In this document: positions 9,802 to 63,405 of the stretch, piece by piece
How the letters are laid out: each line of letters starts with the position of its first letter
Numbering within the stretch: position 1 is the first letter of the stretch
From: an uncultured Candidatus Saccharibacteria bacterium
GTDB taxonomy: Bacteria; Patescibacteriota; Minisyncoccia; Phycocordibacterales; UBA918
Direction: 5' to 3'
Assembly: GCA_964402035.1 (NCBI GenBank)
Contig: CAYOAM010000001.1
Location: 371,558 to 435,557, forward strand
DNA: 64,000 bases
Translations under genes and position numbers: made by a program
The notes under the pieces: generated by a model
What the model was told of the DNA's origin: nothing
What the model saw: only the letters and a program-made list of their open reading frames with translations
The model's database searches: none

Positions 9802-10200
9802 CTATGACTCCTTGATACACCGTGTACGCTTTCCGTACGATTCAATATCGTGTGGCGCAAACAGTTTGTGCATGTGTGCGAGCAATGCGTCTGCTAGCGC
9901 GTCGTTGTTCTTGGTGAAATTGCAATAGTGAATCGTGAGCTCGAGCGCCTTCCGTTCTGGCCATGTGTGTATCGCTACATGTGACTCGCCAATAATTGAG
10001 ACGAAGCTGTATCCATGCCCTTCTCCAAATGAATAAAAACATGAATCAATGTAGGTAAAACCAGAATTTTTGATAGCATTCACCAACTCATCATGCGCTC
10101 GCGGCTCATGCAGCATGTCGACATGTTCACACTGATAAAAATCCCACGCGAGATCAATACTTCCCCCAAACTGAGGTACCATTTCTTTTTCCATATACAC
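9802..10200 (-). CDS. speH: S-adenosylmethionine decarboxylase proenzyme, archaeal/Bacillus SpeH type
   Basis: Diagnostic ESHVAIHTWPE motif (self-processing serine). ~130 aa. Confidence 0.8.
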   Translation of the reverse strand: MYMEKEMVPQFGGSIDLAWDFYQCEHVDMLHEPRAHDELVNAIKNSGFTYIDSCFYSFGEGHGYSFVSIIGESHVAIHTWPERKALELTIHYCNFTKNNDALADALLAHMHKLFAPHDIESYGKRTRCIKES

Positions 10201-14794: not shown

Positions 14795-14978
14795 CCATAA
14801 AGCATATCAGGACACGGAGACTGAATTGTGTGTTGTACACAAATGCTGCTGCGTTTTATAAAATAAACCGGGCAGCCCACCACCTCTGTCTCCTTTTGTT
14901 TTTGAGCTAAATTTGGTATAACAGACGAGCAGATTTACTGCCTGCTTTAAAGTAAGTGAAGTGGTAAATCTAACCGGT

Positions 14979-15167
14979 CTCCCCTTCACAGGGGCAGTAC
15001 ACCTTCAGGATTTTTTGTCTCCCTTCGGTCACAAAAAACCTCTGAAGGTCCCAAAACAGTCCCCCGGACTTTTTCTCCCTACGGGAGCAGTACACCTTGC
15101 TGCTACTTTTGTTGCTTCGCACAAAAGATACCTATCAAGGTCCCAAAACAGTCCCCCGGACTTTTTT
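14979..15167 (+). repeat. tandem direct repeat of two ~95-nt units, each ending in a terminator-like hairpin plus T-run, immediately upstream of tRNA-Glu
   Basis: The units share ...c(c/t)cc(t)-hairpin-gcagtacacctt...aaggtcccaaaacagtcccccggacttttt. The 3' hairpin agtcc-ccc-ggact is followed by TTTTT. Confidence 0.6.
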
Positions 15168-15239
15168 GGCCCTATCGTCTAACGGTTAGGACGGAGCCTT
15201 CTCAAGGCTCAAATCAGGGTTCGATTCCCTGTAGGGTCA
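15168..15239 (+). tRNA. tRNA-Glu (anticodon CUC)
   Basis: Cloverleaf fits. Acceptor GGCCCTA/TAGGGTC, D-arm GTCT..GGAC, anticodon stem GAGCC/GGCTC with loop TTCTCAA, T-arm CAGGG-TTCGATT-CCCTG, discriminator A. CCA is not encoded. Confidence 0.8.
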
Positions 15240-15261
15240 TGGTTTAAGTTTACTTCACAAA

Positions 15262-15290
15262 AGAGCACTATTTCAGTGCTCTTTTGTGTT
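15262..15290 (+). terminator. rho-independent terminator after tRNA-Glu
   Basis: Hairpin aaagagcact-atttc-agtgctctttt followed by a T-rich tail. Confidence 0.55.
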
Positions 15291-15729
15291 TAGTAAACTC
15301 ACCATGACCCTAAGCAGGCAACCTATGTTGCCTGCGTCGGGGAATCGAAGCGGCGCAGTATATCGCAAAGCGATACGAGCCGCCGTCCAGAAGTCTTAGT
15401 ATTTTAAATATTTTAGTATTTAAAATACTAAGAACTTCGGGGACGATCCAGAACCGGCAAGAGTCCTTACGGGACCCGTTTAGGTTGTATGATATTTTTT
15501 TCAAAAATAATCGACAACCTCTTGAGAAGCTACATGTATTCGCTTCTCAACCCTGTAGGGTCACCATTGACAGCTAGCACTAATAGGTTTGTAATGAATG
15601 CATTTAGAGCTAGCTGTAGAAGCATACGAAATCCCCTAAATTGATTAGGGGATTTCGTATGCTTCAAGATAAATCACTTTTGCAAGAGTTTTTCGGTCCG
15701 CGCCATACTGAATCAGTTATACTTGGATA

Positions 15730-58884: not shown

Positions 58885-59574
58885 TTATGAACCTTGTAAT
58901 CGAGCGTACCTTGAGAGGAGCTCCGTCTGCTGCAGTATGTGCCCATGCATTGCCTTTTCTACTTCAGCTTTAGTCGCCCCCTCCTCTAATTCTAACACGA
59001 CATCGAGGGCAAAGAGTTTCCAAAAATACCGATGCTCACGATCCGGTGGACAGGGACCGGTGTAGGTATTTTTGCCACTAGAATTTTTCCCCAACGCCCC
59101 ACCCGCCGCTTGATCCCCTTCTGCTAGGTGTGTAGTTGTAGCGGGAATGTTAAAAAGCACCCAATGATCAAAGACATCAATACCCATTCTTTCTTTCACA
59201 AAATTCGGAATATCTGGGTCTTCCATCAAAAGCACAAGCGACCGTGTCCACTCTGGAACACCCGAAATCTGAAGCTCCGGATTTTTGTTTTCCCCATCAC
59301 ACGTGTATTGAGACGGTATCAAGCCGCCCTCAGTAATAGCTGGACTGGTGAGTGAAAATGTGGATGTTGCTTTACTTGCGTCATTCGTAGGTGTAGCCTG
59401 CATTATTGGTTGCTTAGTTTGGTAAAAAATAAAAAACAGTGCAGCCGCAATGATCAAAAAGCCGAGACTCGAAAGCGTAAAAGCCAACCGCATACCCCAT
59501 CCTACCATGTTGAATCTCCACCATTTTGATGTACAATGCAGAGCGTTCGGATCAAAGACCCGAACAAGAAGCAA
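58885..59574 (-). CDS. YbhB/YbcL family (PEBP/Raf-kinase-inhibitor-like) protein with an N-terminal membrane anchor
   Basis: The PEBP core (LIPSQYTCDGENKNPELQISGVPEWTRSLVLLMEDPD). The true start is more likely the internal Met (MVGWGMRLAF, ~59508), because the long start abuts the tRNA-fragment repeat. Confidence 0.7.
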   Translation of the reverse strand: MLLVRVFDPNALHCTSKWWRFNMVGWGMRLAFTLSSLGFLIIAAALFFIFYQTKQPIMQATPTNDASKATSTFSLTSPAITEGGLIPSQYTCDGENKNPELQISGVPEWTRSLVLLMEDPDIPNFVKERMGIDVFDHWVLFNIPATTTHLAEGDQAAGGALGKNSSGKNTYTGPCPPDREHRYFWKLFALDVVLELEEGATKAEVEKAMHGHILQQTELLSRYARLQGS

Positions 59575-59598
59575 TTCCGATGTAGCTCAATGGTAGAG
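59574..59598 (+). repeat. 25-nt exact duplicate of the tRNA-Asn 5' exon start (attccgatgtagctcaatggtagag), followed by a structured ~110-nt insert and a degenerate anticodon-stem copy
   Basis: Identical to 59736-59760. Downstream at ~59710-59724 gctcgctgGgaacag mirrors the tRNA segment gctcgctgTgaacaa. The interval contains the hairpins gacaatttt...aaattgtc and cctct-gtaa-gaggg. Confidence 0.6.
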
Positions 59599-59737
59599 TG
59601 AGAAAGTCTGGGAGACTTTCGCAAGAGGTTGTCGACAATTTTGAGCTTGAGAGAAATTGTCATACAACCTGAACAGCCTCTGTAAGAGGGCTCGCTGGGA
59701 ACAGTTTGGTGAAGTGGAGGTAGGTACAAGTACATAT

Positions 59738-60065
59738 TCCGATGTAGCTCAATGGTAGAGCAGCTCGCTGTGAACAAAAAAGTTCCAATCGCAGCTTCCT
59801 AGAGAAACCTAGGTTGAAAAACAAGGTGAATTGCTGGAAACCCCTTTGGGGCAATCAGCAGCCAAGCCCGATCGTATCGCAGATACGATTTAGGGAAGGT
59901 TCAGAGACTATCCCTTCGGGGAGTAGCAGGATAACGTTAATCTTTGCGAAGCGCCTTGCACCGTCATTTTGATCAAACAAAATCGGTGATGATATAGTCC
60001 ATCCCTTTTAGCAATAAGAGGAGCAATGTAACGAGTTGGTTGTAGGTTCGAATCCTACCATCGGA
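59738..60065 (+). tRNA. tRNA-Asn(GUU) interrupted by a group I intron between anticodon positions 35 and 36 (exons 59738-59771 and 60028-60065)
   Basis: Exon 1 TCCGATG-TA-GCTC-AATGGTA-GAGC-A-GCTCG-CUGU. Exon 2 UAA-CGAGT-TGGTT-GTAGG-TTCGAAT-CCTAC-CATCGGA-G. The acceptor stem pairs perfectly and the discriminator is G73. After splicing the loop reads CU-GUU-AA. Confidence 0.7.
59772..60027 (+). ncRNA. group I self-splicing intron (256 nt) in the tRNA anticodon loop
   Basis: P1: exon GCUGU (59767-59771) pairs with IGS GCAGC (59791-59795), placing U:G at the splice site. Core elements are P aattgctggaaa (59829-59840), Q aatcagcagcc (59853-59863), R gttcagagacta (59899-59910) and S gatgatatagtcc (59987-59999). 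P2 is cctag/ctagg, P8 has a UUCG loop, and the intron ends in G60027. Confidence 0.75.
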
Positions 60066-60069
60066 GCAA

Positions 60070-60106
60070 AATAAAAAGAGCCACATTTGTGGGCTCTTTT
60101 TATTTT
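60070..60106. terminator. bidirectional rho-independent terminator after the tRNA
   Basis: An A-run, then the hairpin gagcc-acatttgt-gggctc, then a T-run (ctctttttatttt). Confidence 0.55.
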
Positions 60107-60378
60107 GCGTAGATGGAGGAAGTGAACAGTTTCACTTCCGTTAGGATTCGAACGACGGAGTATGTTGCAGAGCAACTACGAGTCGGTGCCCAGACAAATT
60201 TCCATTTGGAAATTTAGTCGAGGGAGAAATTCATACCATCGGAGCCCACGATAAAAGCCTTATCAATAGGGCTATTATCTTTGCGCCTCAGACAGGATTC
60301 GAACTAAAGCGCTTGTGTTCTAGCAACATTTATTAAAAATGCTATGCTTCGCGCAGACACCAGCGGAGGAAATGTGCA

Positions 60379-60726
60379 ATGTTTCGATGCGTCAACTGCG
60401 GATGCAAGCGCGAGGAGCATATTCCTGACTTAGTTAACGAGCCTGCCGAAGGAGAATTCGCAGGCATCGACACGGTAATGCCGGGATATACCATGTCGAT
60501 CTTGGACTGCATGGAAACTCCATGGCCACCAGATTACCAGAAGCAAGCTGACGAACTATGTTTTGGTTCTCTTTGTGTTCGAGATGGACGAGGTTACATC
60601 TCACCAGATATGGAACGTGAAGAGGTCGAGGCAAGATCAAAGCTTGCGACGGCGGCTGGCACAGGATCAGTACTCATTGTTTATGATGAACGTACCGGCA
60701 TGTCCCACATATTATATCTTGAGTGA
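60379..60726 (+). CDS. hypothetical small protein with an N-terminal CxxC pair
   Basis: 115-aa ORF (MFRCVNCGCKREEH...). The upstream region is full of tRNA-derived fragments. No motif beyond the cysteines. Confidence 0.35.
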   Translation: MFRCVNCGCKREEHIPDLVNEPAEGEFAGIDTVMPGYTMSILDCMETPWPPDYQKQADELCFGSLCVRDGRGYISPDMEREEVEARSKLATAAGTGSVLIVYDERTGMSHILYLE

Positions 60727-60925: not shown

Positions 60926-61660
60926 TCACGACCTTGGCACCATCTCCTGTGGAATCATCTTAATGGATAAATGAACTCGTTCAGTATTATAGTATCGCAG
61001 ATATTTTTTCAACGCACAGTTGATTGCACGCACATCAGTGGGTACATGGTCTAAACACTCCTCTTGGAGAGTTCTGTTGAAGCGCTCAATGTGTGCGTTG
61101 TCGTTTGGTTTCCCGATACGCGAATAGCGATGGTCATGCTTGATTCTGGAGACAAACCATGACGAGAACTCAGGTCCATGATCAGACTGCAGCATCGAGA
61201 ATCGAAAGGTGCAGTGTCGTGCTGCTTCGCGCACGAAACGCACACTGGTTCTGCCGTTCATGCGCGCGTATGCTTTCGCATACGCAACACGAGAGTTCAC
61301 GTCGATGAGTGAGAACACATACAGTCGCTTTTTCTGGTCAATCATGCGGTGGATGGTATCGATTTCCACTAAGGAACCTGGCCGTGCTGCGATCGGTCGA
61401 TCGATATGCGGGTGGTACCGTTTCCACGGACTTCGTTTCTTGAGGAGCCCGTGTCGTTCGATGGTACGGTGTACCGTATTTCGAGACACCATCACCCCCT
61501 CACGCATGAGCATCAGATGTATTGCTTCCGTACATCGCCCCGTACTGAGCCGCAGGCGTACAATCCGTTGTTCGACTGCATCGGGAATACTGCGTGGATG
61601 ATGACGAGGACGAGAGCTTCTGGTGGGTATGGTATGATACCCAATCCTCTTCGCTCTTCA
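60926..61660 (-). mobile_element. IS3-family transposase OrfB (DDE integrase core) fragment without a detectable orfA (truncated IS remnant)
   Basis: The 195-aa ORF carries the rve-domain pattern (LMREGV..., VEIDTIHRM, DHGPEF, IERFNRTLQEE). The same frame extends upstream to ~61660 without a stop (...IPDAVEQRIVRLRLSTGRCTEAIHL). No HTH orfA or slippery heptamer was found. The next plus-strand gene starts at 61903. Confidence 0.6.
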
Positions 61661-61902
61661 CACCCACTTCATCACCGCAGTATGGTGGTACCCAAGGTAC
61701 CGACCAACCTTGCGTGCACTCCATCCTTTGTTGAGGACAAGATACGCCGCTTCGCGGCGTATCTTTGGCATCTGTGGATTTTTGGTATACATGGCACTAG
61801 TATGTGGTGCCAAGGTATTGGGGGATTACGGTAAATTTGACAAACACGTAGCATAATCGTATAGTCGCTCCCGATTGCTCTTTCACAAAGAAAGGACTTC
61901 CC

Positions 61903-63405
61903 ATGAAGATTGAAGATGTTCTCGCCCGCCTCGATCATGAGCACAAAAACGGTGCCTCTGAAGAGGATCTCGCAAATACGGCTAAATCGATCATTCGTCC
62001 ACCTGCCGTCGCGCACCTTAATCCACACTCGACGAGGAAAATGGTGGGAACAAGGGAGTCGTTTGACAAGTCGAGCGTCACCATTTCGTTAGAAACCGAA
62101 CATGGGATGGCGACAGACGAGATTCGTCGTACTCTCGCGGAGACACTTGCAACGTTCGGCACACTGGAAGCACCTCCTGACATGTTTACGGCAGAAATTA
62201 GCTATCGCTGGGAATCGATTGCGGCATTTCTACGAGAAACGGAAATTTCGCCAAAGGTCAGCCATATTACGATTAGTCCGCATTACGCCACTATCGACAA
62301 GACGAAGCTGCGTATGCACAAACCCCGTGGCAACTCCGTTGATCTTAAACTGGACTACTGGCCGAACTACAAAGGTCCGCATATCGAGATCGCCACGAAG
62401 CACAGTGTGCAATTGCACGAGGAGATCGTACGGGCAATTCGTCCGTGGGTTACCTACTCATTCAGTAGGCCTGCATGGCTTCCACGTCTGAGGCGCAGAG
62501 ATACCACACAGATGCGATTCAATTTCGGCGGAGGCGGCGGTATTTCTTTTGCAGAATTCGAGCCCACGATCAATATTCCCGCGCCTGCAAACTTTCTGCT
62601 CGGCGTCGGAAGACTCTTTGGCACGAAACTACCGCTGCCAACGGAGTTCAGGAAGGCAGTTTTCAACAGCGACCGCCTTCTTGAGTACCTGCAGACAGCA
62701 AGCAGCCTCTTTAGCAAGCATCAAGATGCTGCGACGAACAAATACGAACCGCCGAGCGAGGAAGAGACAGCACGCATGTTCCATCAAGAGCTGCTCGTCA
62801 TCGATTCCTTCGGAAAGGACAAGTCGGGCAACGAGTGCTGGCCTTCCTCAATTGCAGCAGGCCGCGCTGCAGTCAGGATGATCCAGGAACATTTCGGGTG
62901 GAATCACCAGCACATGCAAGCACTCATGCTTGTAACTCCATATCCATGGAATCTTGGTGTGTGGATCACGCACGTATCGGATACATACGGCGTTGAACTG
63001 GAACCCGACTACCCTTCGTGCATTCCCGAGAAAGATACCCAGATCATTCGCTTGTGGTGTCTCCTTCGGGCATTTCGGAAGAGCTTTGCAGCTGATCCGA
63101 AAAATTCATATAGGCGCTACCACGAAGAATATCTTCACCCGACATACTTGTGGTCGAGCTACGTAGAGAAGTGTGACCTGAACGAAGTCGTCCACACGCC
63201 AAAGCCGATGCATGCAGATCTGCAGAAAGTCAGCTTCGGCCATGCGGACATACGCCGCGACAACAAAGACTTCTTCAAGGTGGAATGCTCAACTTTCGAA
63301 CCAAATACCTTGAGCTTTGCGCTTTCGCTCAACACGGGGTCCGATACACCGTTCTTTCCTTTCTACAACAGTGTTCTCAAGCAACTGGGATACACACTCG
63401 GCTGA
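61903..63405 (+). CDS. hypothetical protein (500 aa), no recognisable domain
   Basis: A long uninterrupted ORF with coding-like composition and a GGGGG loop (FNFGGGGGISF). It directly abuts the IS3 remnant. Confidence 0.5.
   Translation: MKIEDVLARLDHEHKNGASEEDLANTAKSIIRPPAVAHLNPHSTRKMVGTRESFDKSSVTISLETEHGMATDEIRRTLAETLATFGTLEAPPDMFTAEISYRWESIAAFLRETEISPKVSHITISPHYATIDKTKLRMHKPRGNSVDLKLDYWPNYKGPHIEIATKHSVQLHEEIVRAIRPWVTYSFSRPAWLPRLRRRDTTQMRFNFGGGGGISFAEFEPTINIPAPANFLLGVGRLFGTKLPLPTEFRKAVFNSDRLLEYLQTASSLFSKHQDAATNKYEPPSEEETARMFHQELLVIDSFGKDKSGNECWPSSIAAGRAAVRMIQEHFGWNHQHMQALMLVTPYPWNLGVWITHVSDTYGVELEPDYPSCIPEKDTQIIRLWCLLRAFRKSFAADPKNSYRRYHEEYLHPTYLWSSYVEKCDLNEVVHTPKPMHADLQKVSFGHADIRRDNKDFFKVECSTFEPNTLSFALSLNTGSDTPFFPFYNSVLKQLGYTLG

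Follow-up and report, generated by a model that had tools for sequence, protein, structure and literature searches.

We analyzed the surroundings of a tRNA-Asn(GUU) gene in a 64,000-nucleotide (nt) window of a genome from an uncultured Candidatus Saccharibacteria bacterium (contig CAYOAM010000001.1; coordinates are those of the window, position 1 being its first letter, and L-numbers denote other loci or assemblies that we compared). We consider it probable, though well short of certain, that this locus is an intron-split tRNA-Asn gene flanked on both sides by non-autonomous selfish structured repeats that are functionally like the Rickettsia palindromic elements (RPEs). The upstream repeat carries a three-hairpin module, which is a widespread and apparently undescribed structured element of Patescibacteria.

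The repeats around the gene are readily located. The 25 nt at 59736–59760, at the 5′ end of the tRNA, recur without change at 59574–59598 (repeat search and raw sequence), confirming an earlier reading of the locus made from the sequence alone, and the repeat widens to 35 nt at 89% identity (59564–59598 vs. 59726–59760) when ~10 nt of leader are included. The one-mismatch copy of the anticodon-stem region that this sequence-only reading saw after the insert is also present: GCTCGCTGgGAACA at 59690–59703 is identical to 59763–59776 at 13 of 14 positions, its last 5 nt being a copy of the first 5 nt of a group I intron. The acceptor 3′ sequence recurs downstream as had been claimed, with the 12-mer TACCATCGGAGC of the tRNA 3′ end found again at 60234–60245 rather than at 60229–60242, and the 15-mer at 60231–60245 matches the tRNA 3′ end (60053–60067) at 14 of 15 positions. 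Two T-arm-like motifs previously placed at 60142 and 60293 both exist one base further on: AGGATTCGAAC at 60143–60153 and at 60294–60304 is in each case an inverted copy of the tRNA T-loop/T-stem sequence GTTCGAATCCTA (60046–60057). Every repeat listed in that reading was thus recovered, with coordinates wrong by up to 5 nt, and, judged as sequences, the repeats are not a matter of chance within 1.1 kb. The whole locus is 100% identical in two independent ENA assemblies of the same strain (L001 and L002), so the arrangement is real and not a misassembly. Logan contigs of this strain, a third assembly, end or start at 60039–60056, within the repeated T-arm sequence; repeats of this kind split short-read assemblies at tRNA loci.

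The upstream (U) element lies on the plus strand and consists of two arms around the module. Its left arm (59564–59598; repeat search and arm comparison) duplicates, as an orphan, ~10 nt of leader together with tRNA-Asn positions 1–24 and ends in ...GGTAGAG, the inner 25 nt being exact. The module (59598–59692) comprises hairpin H1 (~59600–59623), hairpin H2 (59626–59670, AGGTTGTCGAC...GTCATACAACCT), a GAACAG linker, and hairpin H3 (59677–59689) with a GUA triloop; it was delimited by covariation and by R1, a covariance model of the module (96.4 bits, E = 3.7e-21). The right arm (59690–59703; repeat search and arm comparison) carries tRNA-Asn positions 27–35 and the 5 intron nucleotides, positions 25–26 (CA) being the dinucleotide that the module replaces. 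A locus-specific spacer and the leader of the intact tRNA-Asn follow (59704–59737, plus strand, read from the sequence). The U unit is a short two-armed copy of its target in which the module replaces 2 nt, standing beside the intact gene.

The same anatomy was found at other loci. In elements of the U type, an exact copy of the end of the neighboring gene (10–39 nt) adjoins the 5′ end of the module at a fixed G/TGAGA junction, and a second copy of that gene end, 23–226 nt past H3, continues into the intact gene. Where the gene runs in the direction of the module (Asn, Thr, Val, fMet, and Tyr), the arm is its 5′ end; where it runs the other way (Ile, Pro, and Glu), the arm is the reverse complement of its 3′ end. 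An automatic test of 14 informative cases showed for 8 of them that the sequence after H3 picks up the target exactly 2 nt past the point where the left arm stops, and inspection added L049. The skipped dinucleotides are CA, CG, AA, AT, and TA, and the target consensus is apparently RG/NN/G. Next to Asn, Thr, and Val tRNAs, the left arm stops at tRNA position 24 (...GGTAGAG) and the right arm starts at position 27 with the anticodon stem of that very tRNA (8/8 or 7/8); tRNA-Tyr follows the same 2-nt rule at positions 15 and 18. The arms vary between species as the local tRNAs vary (TCCGATG...AATGG in the window vs. TCCGGTG...AGCGG in L016), and the anticodon stems within them follow the local tRNA (GCTCG, GTTGC, and GGTGA).

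A stretch homologous to 59574–59687 lies just upstream of intron-less tRNA-Asn genes in L016, L023, and L011, three genomes of the Paceibacteria type, with 83–91% nucleotide identity (Fmt: 46–55%), and the conservation of the U unit beside intron-less genes makes it independent of the intron. Relatives that have the element and lack the intron carry a copy of the anticodon arm where the window carries the copy of the exon–intron junction, GCTCGCTGgGAACA. This junction copy would be most simply explained by a gene conversion with the adjacent gene as donor, once the intron had arrived, and the exactness of the 25-nt repeat would be explained in the same way. The thermodynamic fold of the whole U element is unremarkable by itself (z = −0.98), and the evidence for its structure is comparative.

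The conserved core of the module reads GTGAGAAR-H1-YTTCGC, AAGAGGTTGTCGA-inner hairpin-TCATACAACCTGAAC, AG, and then H3, or, as an RNA of ~93 nt, GUGAGAA-H1-UUCGC, AAGAGGUUGUCGA-inner hairpin-UCAUACAACCU, GAACAG, and H3 with its GUA triloop. The length of the inner hairpin varies, which shifts the frame, and the module therefore has no conserved reading frame. A 24-base pattern of the core matched 114 stretches in metagenome contigs. From the alignment of 64 full copies came a three-hairpin consensus whose 24 pairs include 12 with compensatory double changes. Paired cells amounted to 98.3%, compared with 85.6% in column shuffles and ~45% when partners were slid, and double-change (compensatory) cells numbered 187, compared with 42 in shuffles (0 of 500 shuffles). 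G·U cells exceed A·C cells (22 vs. 4), which places the selection of the structure on the strand running from GTGAGA to GUA. H3 is a 5-bp stem with an invariant GUA triloop: covariation pairs position 2 of the loop with position 6, and H3 as an anticodon-loop mimic or TGT substrate (UGU) was ruled out on that account.

R1 scored three copies in the 64-kb window and found 127 in 99 metagenome loci, often two to three per locus, which amounts to roughly one additional copy per 18 kb on top of those through which the loci had been fetched. A tRNA gene lies within 600 nt of 52 of 121 instances (~43%), with 16 tRNA identities represented and 43 instances co-oriented with the tRNA against 9 in the opposite orientation. 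Other instances are located at the ends of protein genes (e.g., msrA, mscL, EF-G, P-loop and Rossmann-type genes). Orphan ends and the module go together strongly: upstream of tRNAs, both were present in 16 cases, the orphan only in 3, the module only in 8, and neither in 58; the corresponding counts downstream of tRNAs were 27, 10, 14, and 31. Modules at Asn sites have a similarity of 0.71, compared with 0.66 for modules anywhere, and the nearest relative of the window's module is a copy within a kinase coding gene.

Within coding genes the module replaces 2 nt without any repeat. One in-frame insertion adds 31 residues and no stop codon to the ATPase domain of a histidine kinase (L133, 365–460, minus strand), and another adds 33 residues, again without a stop, to a protein of the metallo-β-lactamase fold (L107, 2064–2162, plus strand), where the H3 variant CGGUACG avoids the stop codon that CUGUAAG gives in that frame. 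The module is absent at the orthologous tRNA-Asn loci of L007, L010, L018–21, and L025–27. We also observed protein genes in which a truncated copy of the gene's own first 9–14 codons is followed by the module and then by the complete gene with a new start (L058, 3200–3400; L130, 870–1100, minus strand; L116; and L120); in L130 the stop codon of the module-extended upstream open reading frame (ORF) overlaps the true start (ATGA).

Among the genes within 2.5 kb of the 121 instances, no family of integrases, transposases, or reverse transcriptases is recurrent; those that do recur are housekeeping or syntenic genes. A comparison with Rfam, which the sequence-only reading had suggested for the inserts, matched only the intron and tRNA-Glu and left the module without a family: Rfam 15 has none at 59598–59692 up to E = 10, barring a 13.8-bit chance match. 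Viral contigs of IMG/VR gave 0 matches to the module pattern, and the searchable literature yielded no description of the module, the motif-string matches being unrelated primers. Self-cleaving ribozymes (hammerhead, HDV-like, and others) gave no match when junctions were compared by eye and through Rfam. Integron attC sites, dif/Xer sites, domains V/VI of group II introns, and archaeal bulge-helix-bulge introns, compared by eye only, do not fit.

Downstream of the tRNA is a bidirectional intrinsic terminator (60058–60116; repeat search and sequence). Its stem takes in the acceptor 3′ strand and the complement GCGTAGATGG (25-nt arms, 88% complementary), so that pairing of the trailer could involve either the 3′ end of the tRNA or its orphan copy farther downstream. 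Inverted repeats combining terminator and acceptor were also observed at 15229–15312 of the window and at 9815–9870 of L011. A degenerate downstream (D) element (60104–60245, plus strand; repeat search and fold) comprises an acceptor-5′-like strand (60107–60116), a hairpin (60118–60139), an inverted T-loop/T-stem TAGGATTCGAAC (60142–60153), two insert hairpins (60154–60228), and an orphan tRNA 3′ end TCATACCATCGGAGC (60231–60245); its fold is far better than that of shuffled sequences (z = −4.37) and has a closing stem GAUGG/CCAUC. R1 gave no significant match on 60104–60378 (best 2.4 bits, E = 1.3, at 60114–60179), and the downstream insert is therefore degenerate or of another subfamily. The orphan end has decayed as well (GAAATTCATACC vs. 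GAATCCTACC).

An R1-positive D element (21–55 bits) follows the tRNA-Asn terminator in L011, L016, L023, and L012, with its parts in the order acceptor-3′ complement (which extends the terminator), hairpin, inverted T-loop/T-stem, H2 and H3, and an orphan tRNA copy that begins in the T loop and runs through the 3′ end. tRNA-Lys, Cys, Val, Ser, and others are followed by this design too, as is, with the module reversed, tRNA-Glu of the window. The stretch 60104–60245 occupies the position homologous to the R1-positive D elements and has every tRNA-derived piece in the same order, and we read this stretch as an old, degenerating D element. Beyond it are a second terminator-like hairpin (60256–60273) and a third fragment on the minus strand (60280–60304; repeat search and comparison), which reads as a tRNA 3′ end (GTTCGAATCCTGTCTGAGGCGCA) followed by that hairpin. 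The 19-nt core of this fragment is conserved at 10092–10110 of L016; a search for its parent tRNA gave no identification. The downstream AGGATTCGAAC motifs were also tried as parts of minus-strand, permuted, or split tRNAs, and no cloverleaf, acceptor 5′ strand, or match to a tRNA model was obtained.

The tRNA-Glu of the window is ringed by the same element family (14975–15565), with two tandem variants on its 5′ side and a D-like element on its 3′ side. The latter holds a second full module copy (15460–15550, minus strand, R1 74.5 bits), downstream of and antisense to tRNA-Glu; its 5′ end adjoins TGACCCTACAGGG, the reverse complement of the tRNA-Glu 3′ end, and the exact orphan of this end occupies 15551–15563. 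On the 5′ side, a diverged module variant (15072–15169, minus strand, R1 28.7 bits, E = 4.6e-5) adjoins the 5′ end of tRNA-Glu (15167–15240), and a second tandem diverged variant was recognized by eye at ~14975–15075 on the minus strand. Exact copies (at least 11 nt) of a tRNA's own 3′ end within 350 nt downstream were observed for 37 of the 82 tRNA genes with enough flank (91 tRNAs, L006–L152); in 10 of these 37 cases an R1-type core is missing from the vicinity, which makes further insert families probable.

The split of the tRNA-Asn gene itself, which the sequence-only reading had not spelled out, emerges from prediction. ARAGORN did not find tRNA-Asn in the unspliced DNA of the window, where it saw only tRNA-Glu, and the Rfam model RF00028 matched full-length (model positions 1–253) at 59762–60021 with 88.1 bits (gathering score 50). 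P1 forms between the internal guide and the last bases of the 5′ exon, the splice site falling after U59771, which forms the U·G wobble, and G60028 is the last base before the 3′ exon; when 59771 was joined to 60029, ARAGORN returned a canonical 73-nt tRNA-Asn (gtt). Because the cloverleaf is recognized only after removal of the intron, and given these splice-site features, we place the intron at 59772–60028 (257 nt, ORF-less, plus strand), between anticodon positions 35 and 36. The 5′ exon (59738–59771, plus strand; Rfam alignment and in-silico splicing) holds tRNA positions 1–35, and the 3′ exon (60029–60067, plus strand; in-silico splicing) holds positions 36–73 plus one base, CCA not being encoded. 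The gene is accordingly split by a predicted group I intron.

The same tRNA-Asn intron is present in the two closest relatives (L007, 9620–10198; L010, 12161–12777), where it contains an HNH-like ORF near P1 (...CANCHREIHGG...; Pfam HNH E = 2–3e-3, below the cut-off). In a blastn comparison with phages only the intron core matched, resembling phage introns such as the psbA intron of S-PM2. Group I introns in the anticodon loops of bacterial tRNAs occur in tRNA-Leu UAA and tRNA-fMet of cyanobacteria and in tRNA-Ile and tRNA-Arg of proteobacteria; to our knowledge, tRNA-Asn is not among the classic hosts. As far as the intron alone is concerned, the window resembles these cases in its predicted self-splicing type, its location in the anticodon loop, and a P1 formed with the 5′ exon and including the U·G wobble, but differs in its host tRNA (Asn, GUU), its phylum (Patescibacteria), and the HNH-like ORF in the introns of the relatives. 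The intron is unrelated to the repeat element.

A σ70-like promoter (TTGAAT-16-TACAAT; 59510–59537, plus strand) was predicted upstream of the whole unit by consensus scan only, and the scan gave no promoter-like site between the U element and tRNA-Asn (59704–59737), which would put the U element in the pre-tRNA leader. The −10 context GTACAATGC is also seen by eye upstream of tRNA-Asn in L007 and L010. The U element is thus probably transcribed as part of the tRNA-Asn leader.

The surroundings of the locus are bacterial chromosome, with priA, def, fmt, hpf, a DUF167-like gene, a glutaredoxin gene, and a PEBP-family gene upstream, and a 115-aa ORF, a degenerate rve transposase, and a 500-aa ORF downstream. 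A Fmt scan of species-representative genomes placed the window among Patescibacteria of the Paceibacteria/Kaiserbacteria type (best identity 62%); in many genomes of this type tRNA-Asn lies ~2 kb downstream of fmt, and it is intron-less in 11. The cysteine-rich 115-aa ORF (60379–60726) and the 500-aa ORF (61903–63405) are conserved together with the locus in contigs of the same strain, and neither has a match in Pfam. The transposase, a degenerate one of insertion-sequence type (60926–61813, minus strand), has an rve/rve_3 core at 60926–61513 and a separate helix-turn-helix-like ORF at 61658–61813, apparently through a frameshift; the rve gene, ~550 nt downstream of the locus, is not a recurrent neighbor of the module. 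The intron-bearing, module-free relatives keep pieces of the tRNA-Asn 5′ end upstream of the gene (L007, 9470–9585; L010, 12095–12130), namely an orphan CATTCCGCGGTA next to a different hairpin in L007 and an inverted ATCGCGGAAT 20 nt upstream of tRNA-Asn in L010.

Our preference for selfish repeats draws on the multiplicity of the module, its occurrence in both orientations, its presence or absence at orthologous sites (of different genomes), its degenerate copies, its in-frame copies in coding genes, and the barely greater likeness of modules at Asn sites than of modules elsewhere. An element inserted in an essential gene would survive only when an intact copy of the gene is kept alongside. 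Gene conversion would then hold the arms identical to the gene, and the right arm in the window would thereby have acquired the exon–intron junction. The U element may be co-transcribed with tRNA-Asn from the promoter at 59510–59537 and freed in the 5′ leader by RNase P, its strand-specific RNA structure serving either the spread of the element or the tolerance of its transcript. The downstream pieces would represent an older, decaying element of a second architecture, with the module in the T-loop of a second acceptor/T-arm copy. Several observations weigh against selfish repeats. No mobility mechanism was identified, and the module has neither terminal inverted repeats nor a target-site duplication. 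A host-beneficial RNA would also fit the very high conservation of the single-stranded segments, the strand specificity of the structure, and the 43:9 co-orientation with tRNAs. The extents of the arms are regular (about −10 to 24 and 27 to 43), unlike the random decay of a disrupted duplicate. Finally, the loci were gathered with a pattern taken from the module itself, which biases the counts toward canonical copies.

One alternative is a host-functional RNA: the module would be a cis-acting or processed noncoding RNA domain (e.g., for leader or trailer processing or stability of highly expressed genes, or as a tRNA-like small RNA that tRNA-processing enzymes mature) that was copied because it is useful. 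Strong strand-specific covariation with invariant single-stranded segments would suit such a domain, as would the 43:9 orientation of the adjacent tRNAs, the position within the probable tRNA-Asn transcription unit, the folding of D-type elements as acceptor/T-arm minihelix mimics with acceptor-like closing stems, and the housekeeping, highly expressed neighbors (EF-G, L7/L12, L10, and GatA). We nevertheless hold it to be rather unlikely, given that many orthologous tRNA-Asn loci do without the module, that copies occur in both orientations and some are degenerate (e.g., 60104–60245 of the window), and that copies in coding sequences are translated rather than removed, the loop variant of L107 avoiding a stop codon; the orphan gene arms would also be left without explanation. 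Still less probable is a guide-plus-scaffold or template RNA, in which the arm would be the targeting or template segment and the module the protein-binding scaffold of a system encoded elsewhere, by analogy with the omega RNAs of IscB/TnpB, the bridge RNAs of IS110, or the template repeat and spacer RNA of diversity-generating retroelements. A gene-identical segment of 10–39 nt does adjoin a conserved structured RNA at a fixed junction, and the arms are identical to the target across species, but no effector gene lies nearby, arms stand on both sides of the module, D-type elements have their gene-identical segment on the 3′ side, some copies within coding genes are armless, and Rfam gave no omega-RNA or HEARO-type match.

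The sequence-only reading had attributed the fragments to repeated site-specific integration and excision, or to reverse splicing or transposition of the intron, at this tRNA. Under the former, the fragments would be attL/attR-type remnants and the hairpins leftovers of the integrated element. Direct repeats of tRNA ends around inserted DNA are a classic sign of tRNA-targeting integrative elements, which likewise keep an intact gene on one side, and an rve-family gene lies ~550 nt downstream. However, the repeats are just 160–180 nt apart, the insert (~100–200 nt) has no recombinase and is spanned by a two-armed orphan, the module is conserved and covaries across many species and tRNAs, it replaces 2 nt in protein genes without repeats and stands in-frame in coding genes, no integrase recurs near it, and the right arm continues the target minus 2 nt, which denotes a copy that received an insertion rather than an att junction. 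Integrase scars are thus largely refuted and in our view very improbable. In related genomes the upstream fragment and its insert form a conserved unit with covarying structure, largely the outcome that the sequence-only reading had itself named as refuting scars. An origin from the group I intron, by reverse splicing, homing-endonuclease cleavage, and faulty repair, could cite the first 5 nt of the intron in the right arm and the HNH-like ORF of the relatives' introns. The distribution across loci largely refutes it, to the point that we give it almost no credence: the U element stands beside intron-less tRNA-Asn genes in L011, L016, L023, and at least five metagenomic loci (L094, L128, L131, L134/L150, and L125) and beside Thr, Val, fMet, and Tyr tRNAs, the intron-bearing L007 and L010 have no U element, and gene conversion by the neighboring gene accounts better for the 5-nt intron copy. 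What survives of the earlier proposal is the idea of mobile sequence active at this tRNA, since the fragments probably do mark a mobile or selfish sequence, together with expression of the upstream piece, which is probably transcribed within the tRNA leader; the mechanism it proposed was wrong.

If the flanking units are indeed selfish repeats, RPEs are the closest known counterpart. RPEs are non-autonomous structured repeats of ~100–150 nt that occur between genes, in-frame in protein genes, and in RNA genes (PMC2229807, PMC10969869). The module is like them in being a small, non-autonomous structured repeat of a reduced genome with these same three kinds of location. Each RPE, however, is one long palindrome that carries ~12-bp terminal inverted repeats and encodes a conserved peptide, whereas the module consists of three successive hairpins without such termini, has a fixed 5′ junction and a 2-nt replacement, is usually embedded in a short copy of the neighboring gene, and belongs to another phylum; we set the two apart by anatomy, without a direct search of RPE sequences. 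[quoted passage not shown] The module shares their size, copy number, and hairpins and is predicted to be co-transcribed with its neighbors, but what defines a MITE is the possession of terminal inverted repeats and of a target-site duplication (often TA), and neither was found: the ends GTGAGAA... and ...C-N-GUA-N-G-NNN are not complementary, and the test for a target-site duplication gave the 2-nt replacement in 8–9 of 14 informative cases, the longer direct repeats (10–39 nt) being variable and part of the partial gene copy. The module is a member of neither the RPE nor the MITE families.

A more specific view, which we advance tentatively and hold to be somewhat doubtful, is that the module forms an element class of its own, inserted by exact 2-nt replacement at a fixed G/UGAGA junction, with no terminal inverted repeats, target-site duplication, or protein, and persisting as two-armed cassettes beside an intact gene with which gene conversion keeps them identical. 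Such cassettes may be RNA-level entities, i.e., leader RNAs or mimics of the tRNA top half that are matured by RNase P and RNase Z. They may also template a homing based on recombination or reverse transcription that exploits the conserved sequences of tRNA and housekeeping genes and thereby passes between lineages of the candidate phyla radiation.

Patescibacteria have genomes of ~1 Mb and usually one gene per tRNA. Against this background, 45% of the tRNA genes examined (37 of 82) have a copy of their own 3′ end nearby, and a single module explains much of this. In practical terms, the element breaks assemblies, conceals tRNA genes from the usual gene finders, and gives rise to pseudo-tRNA fragments that are open to misannotation. 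If it is selfish, it would be a new case, outside Rickettsia, of repeats colonizing essential RNA and protein genes in reduced genomes, and its unusual insertion signature ought to lead to an unknown enzyme. Were it functional, it would represent a widespread, unannotated RNA domain linked to tRNA expression in a major uncultured phylum.

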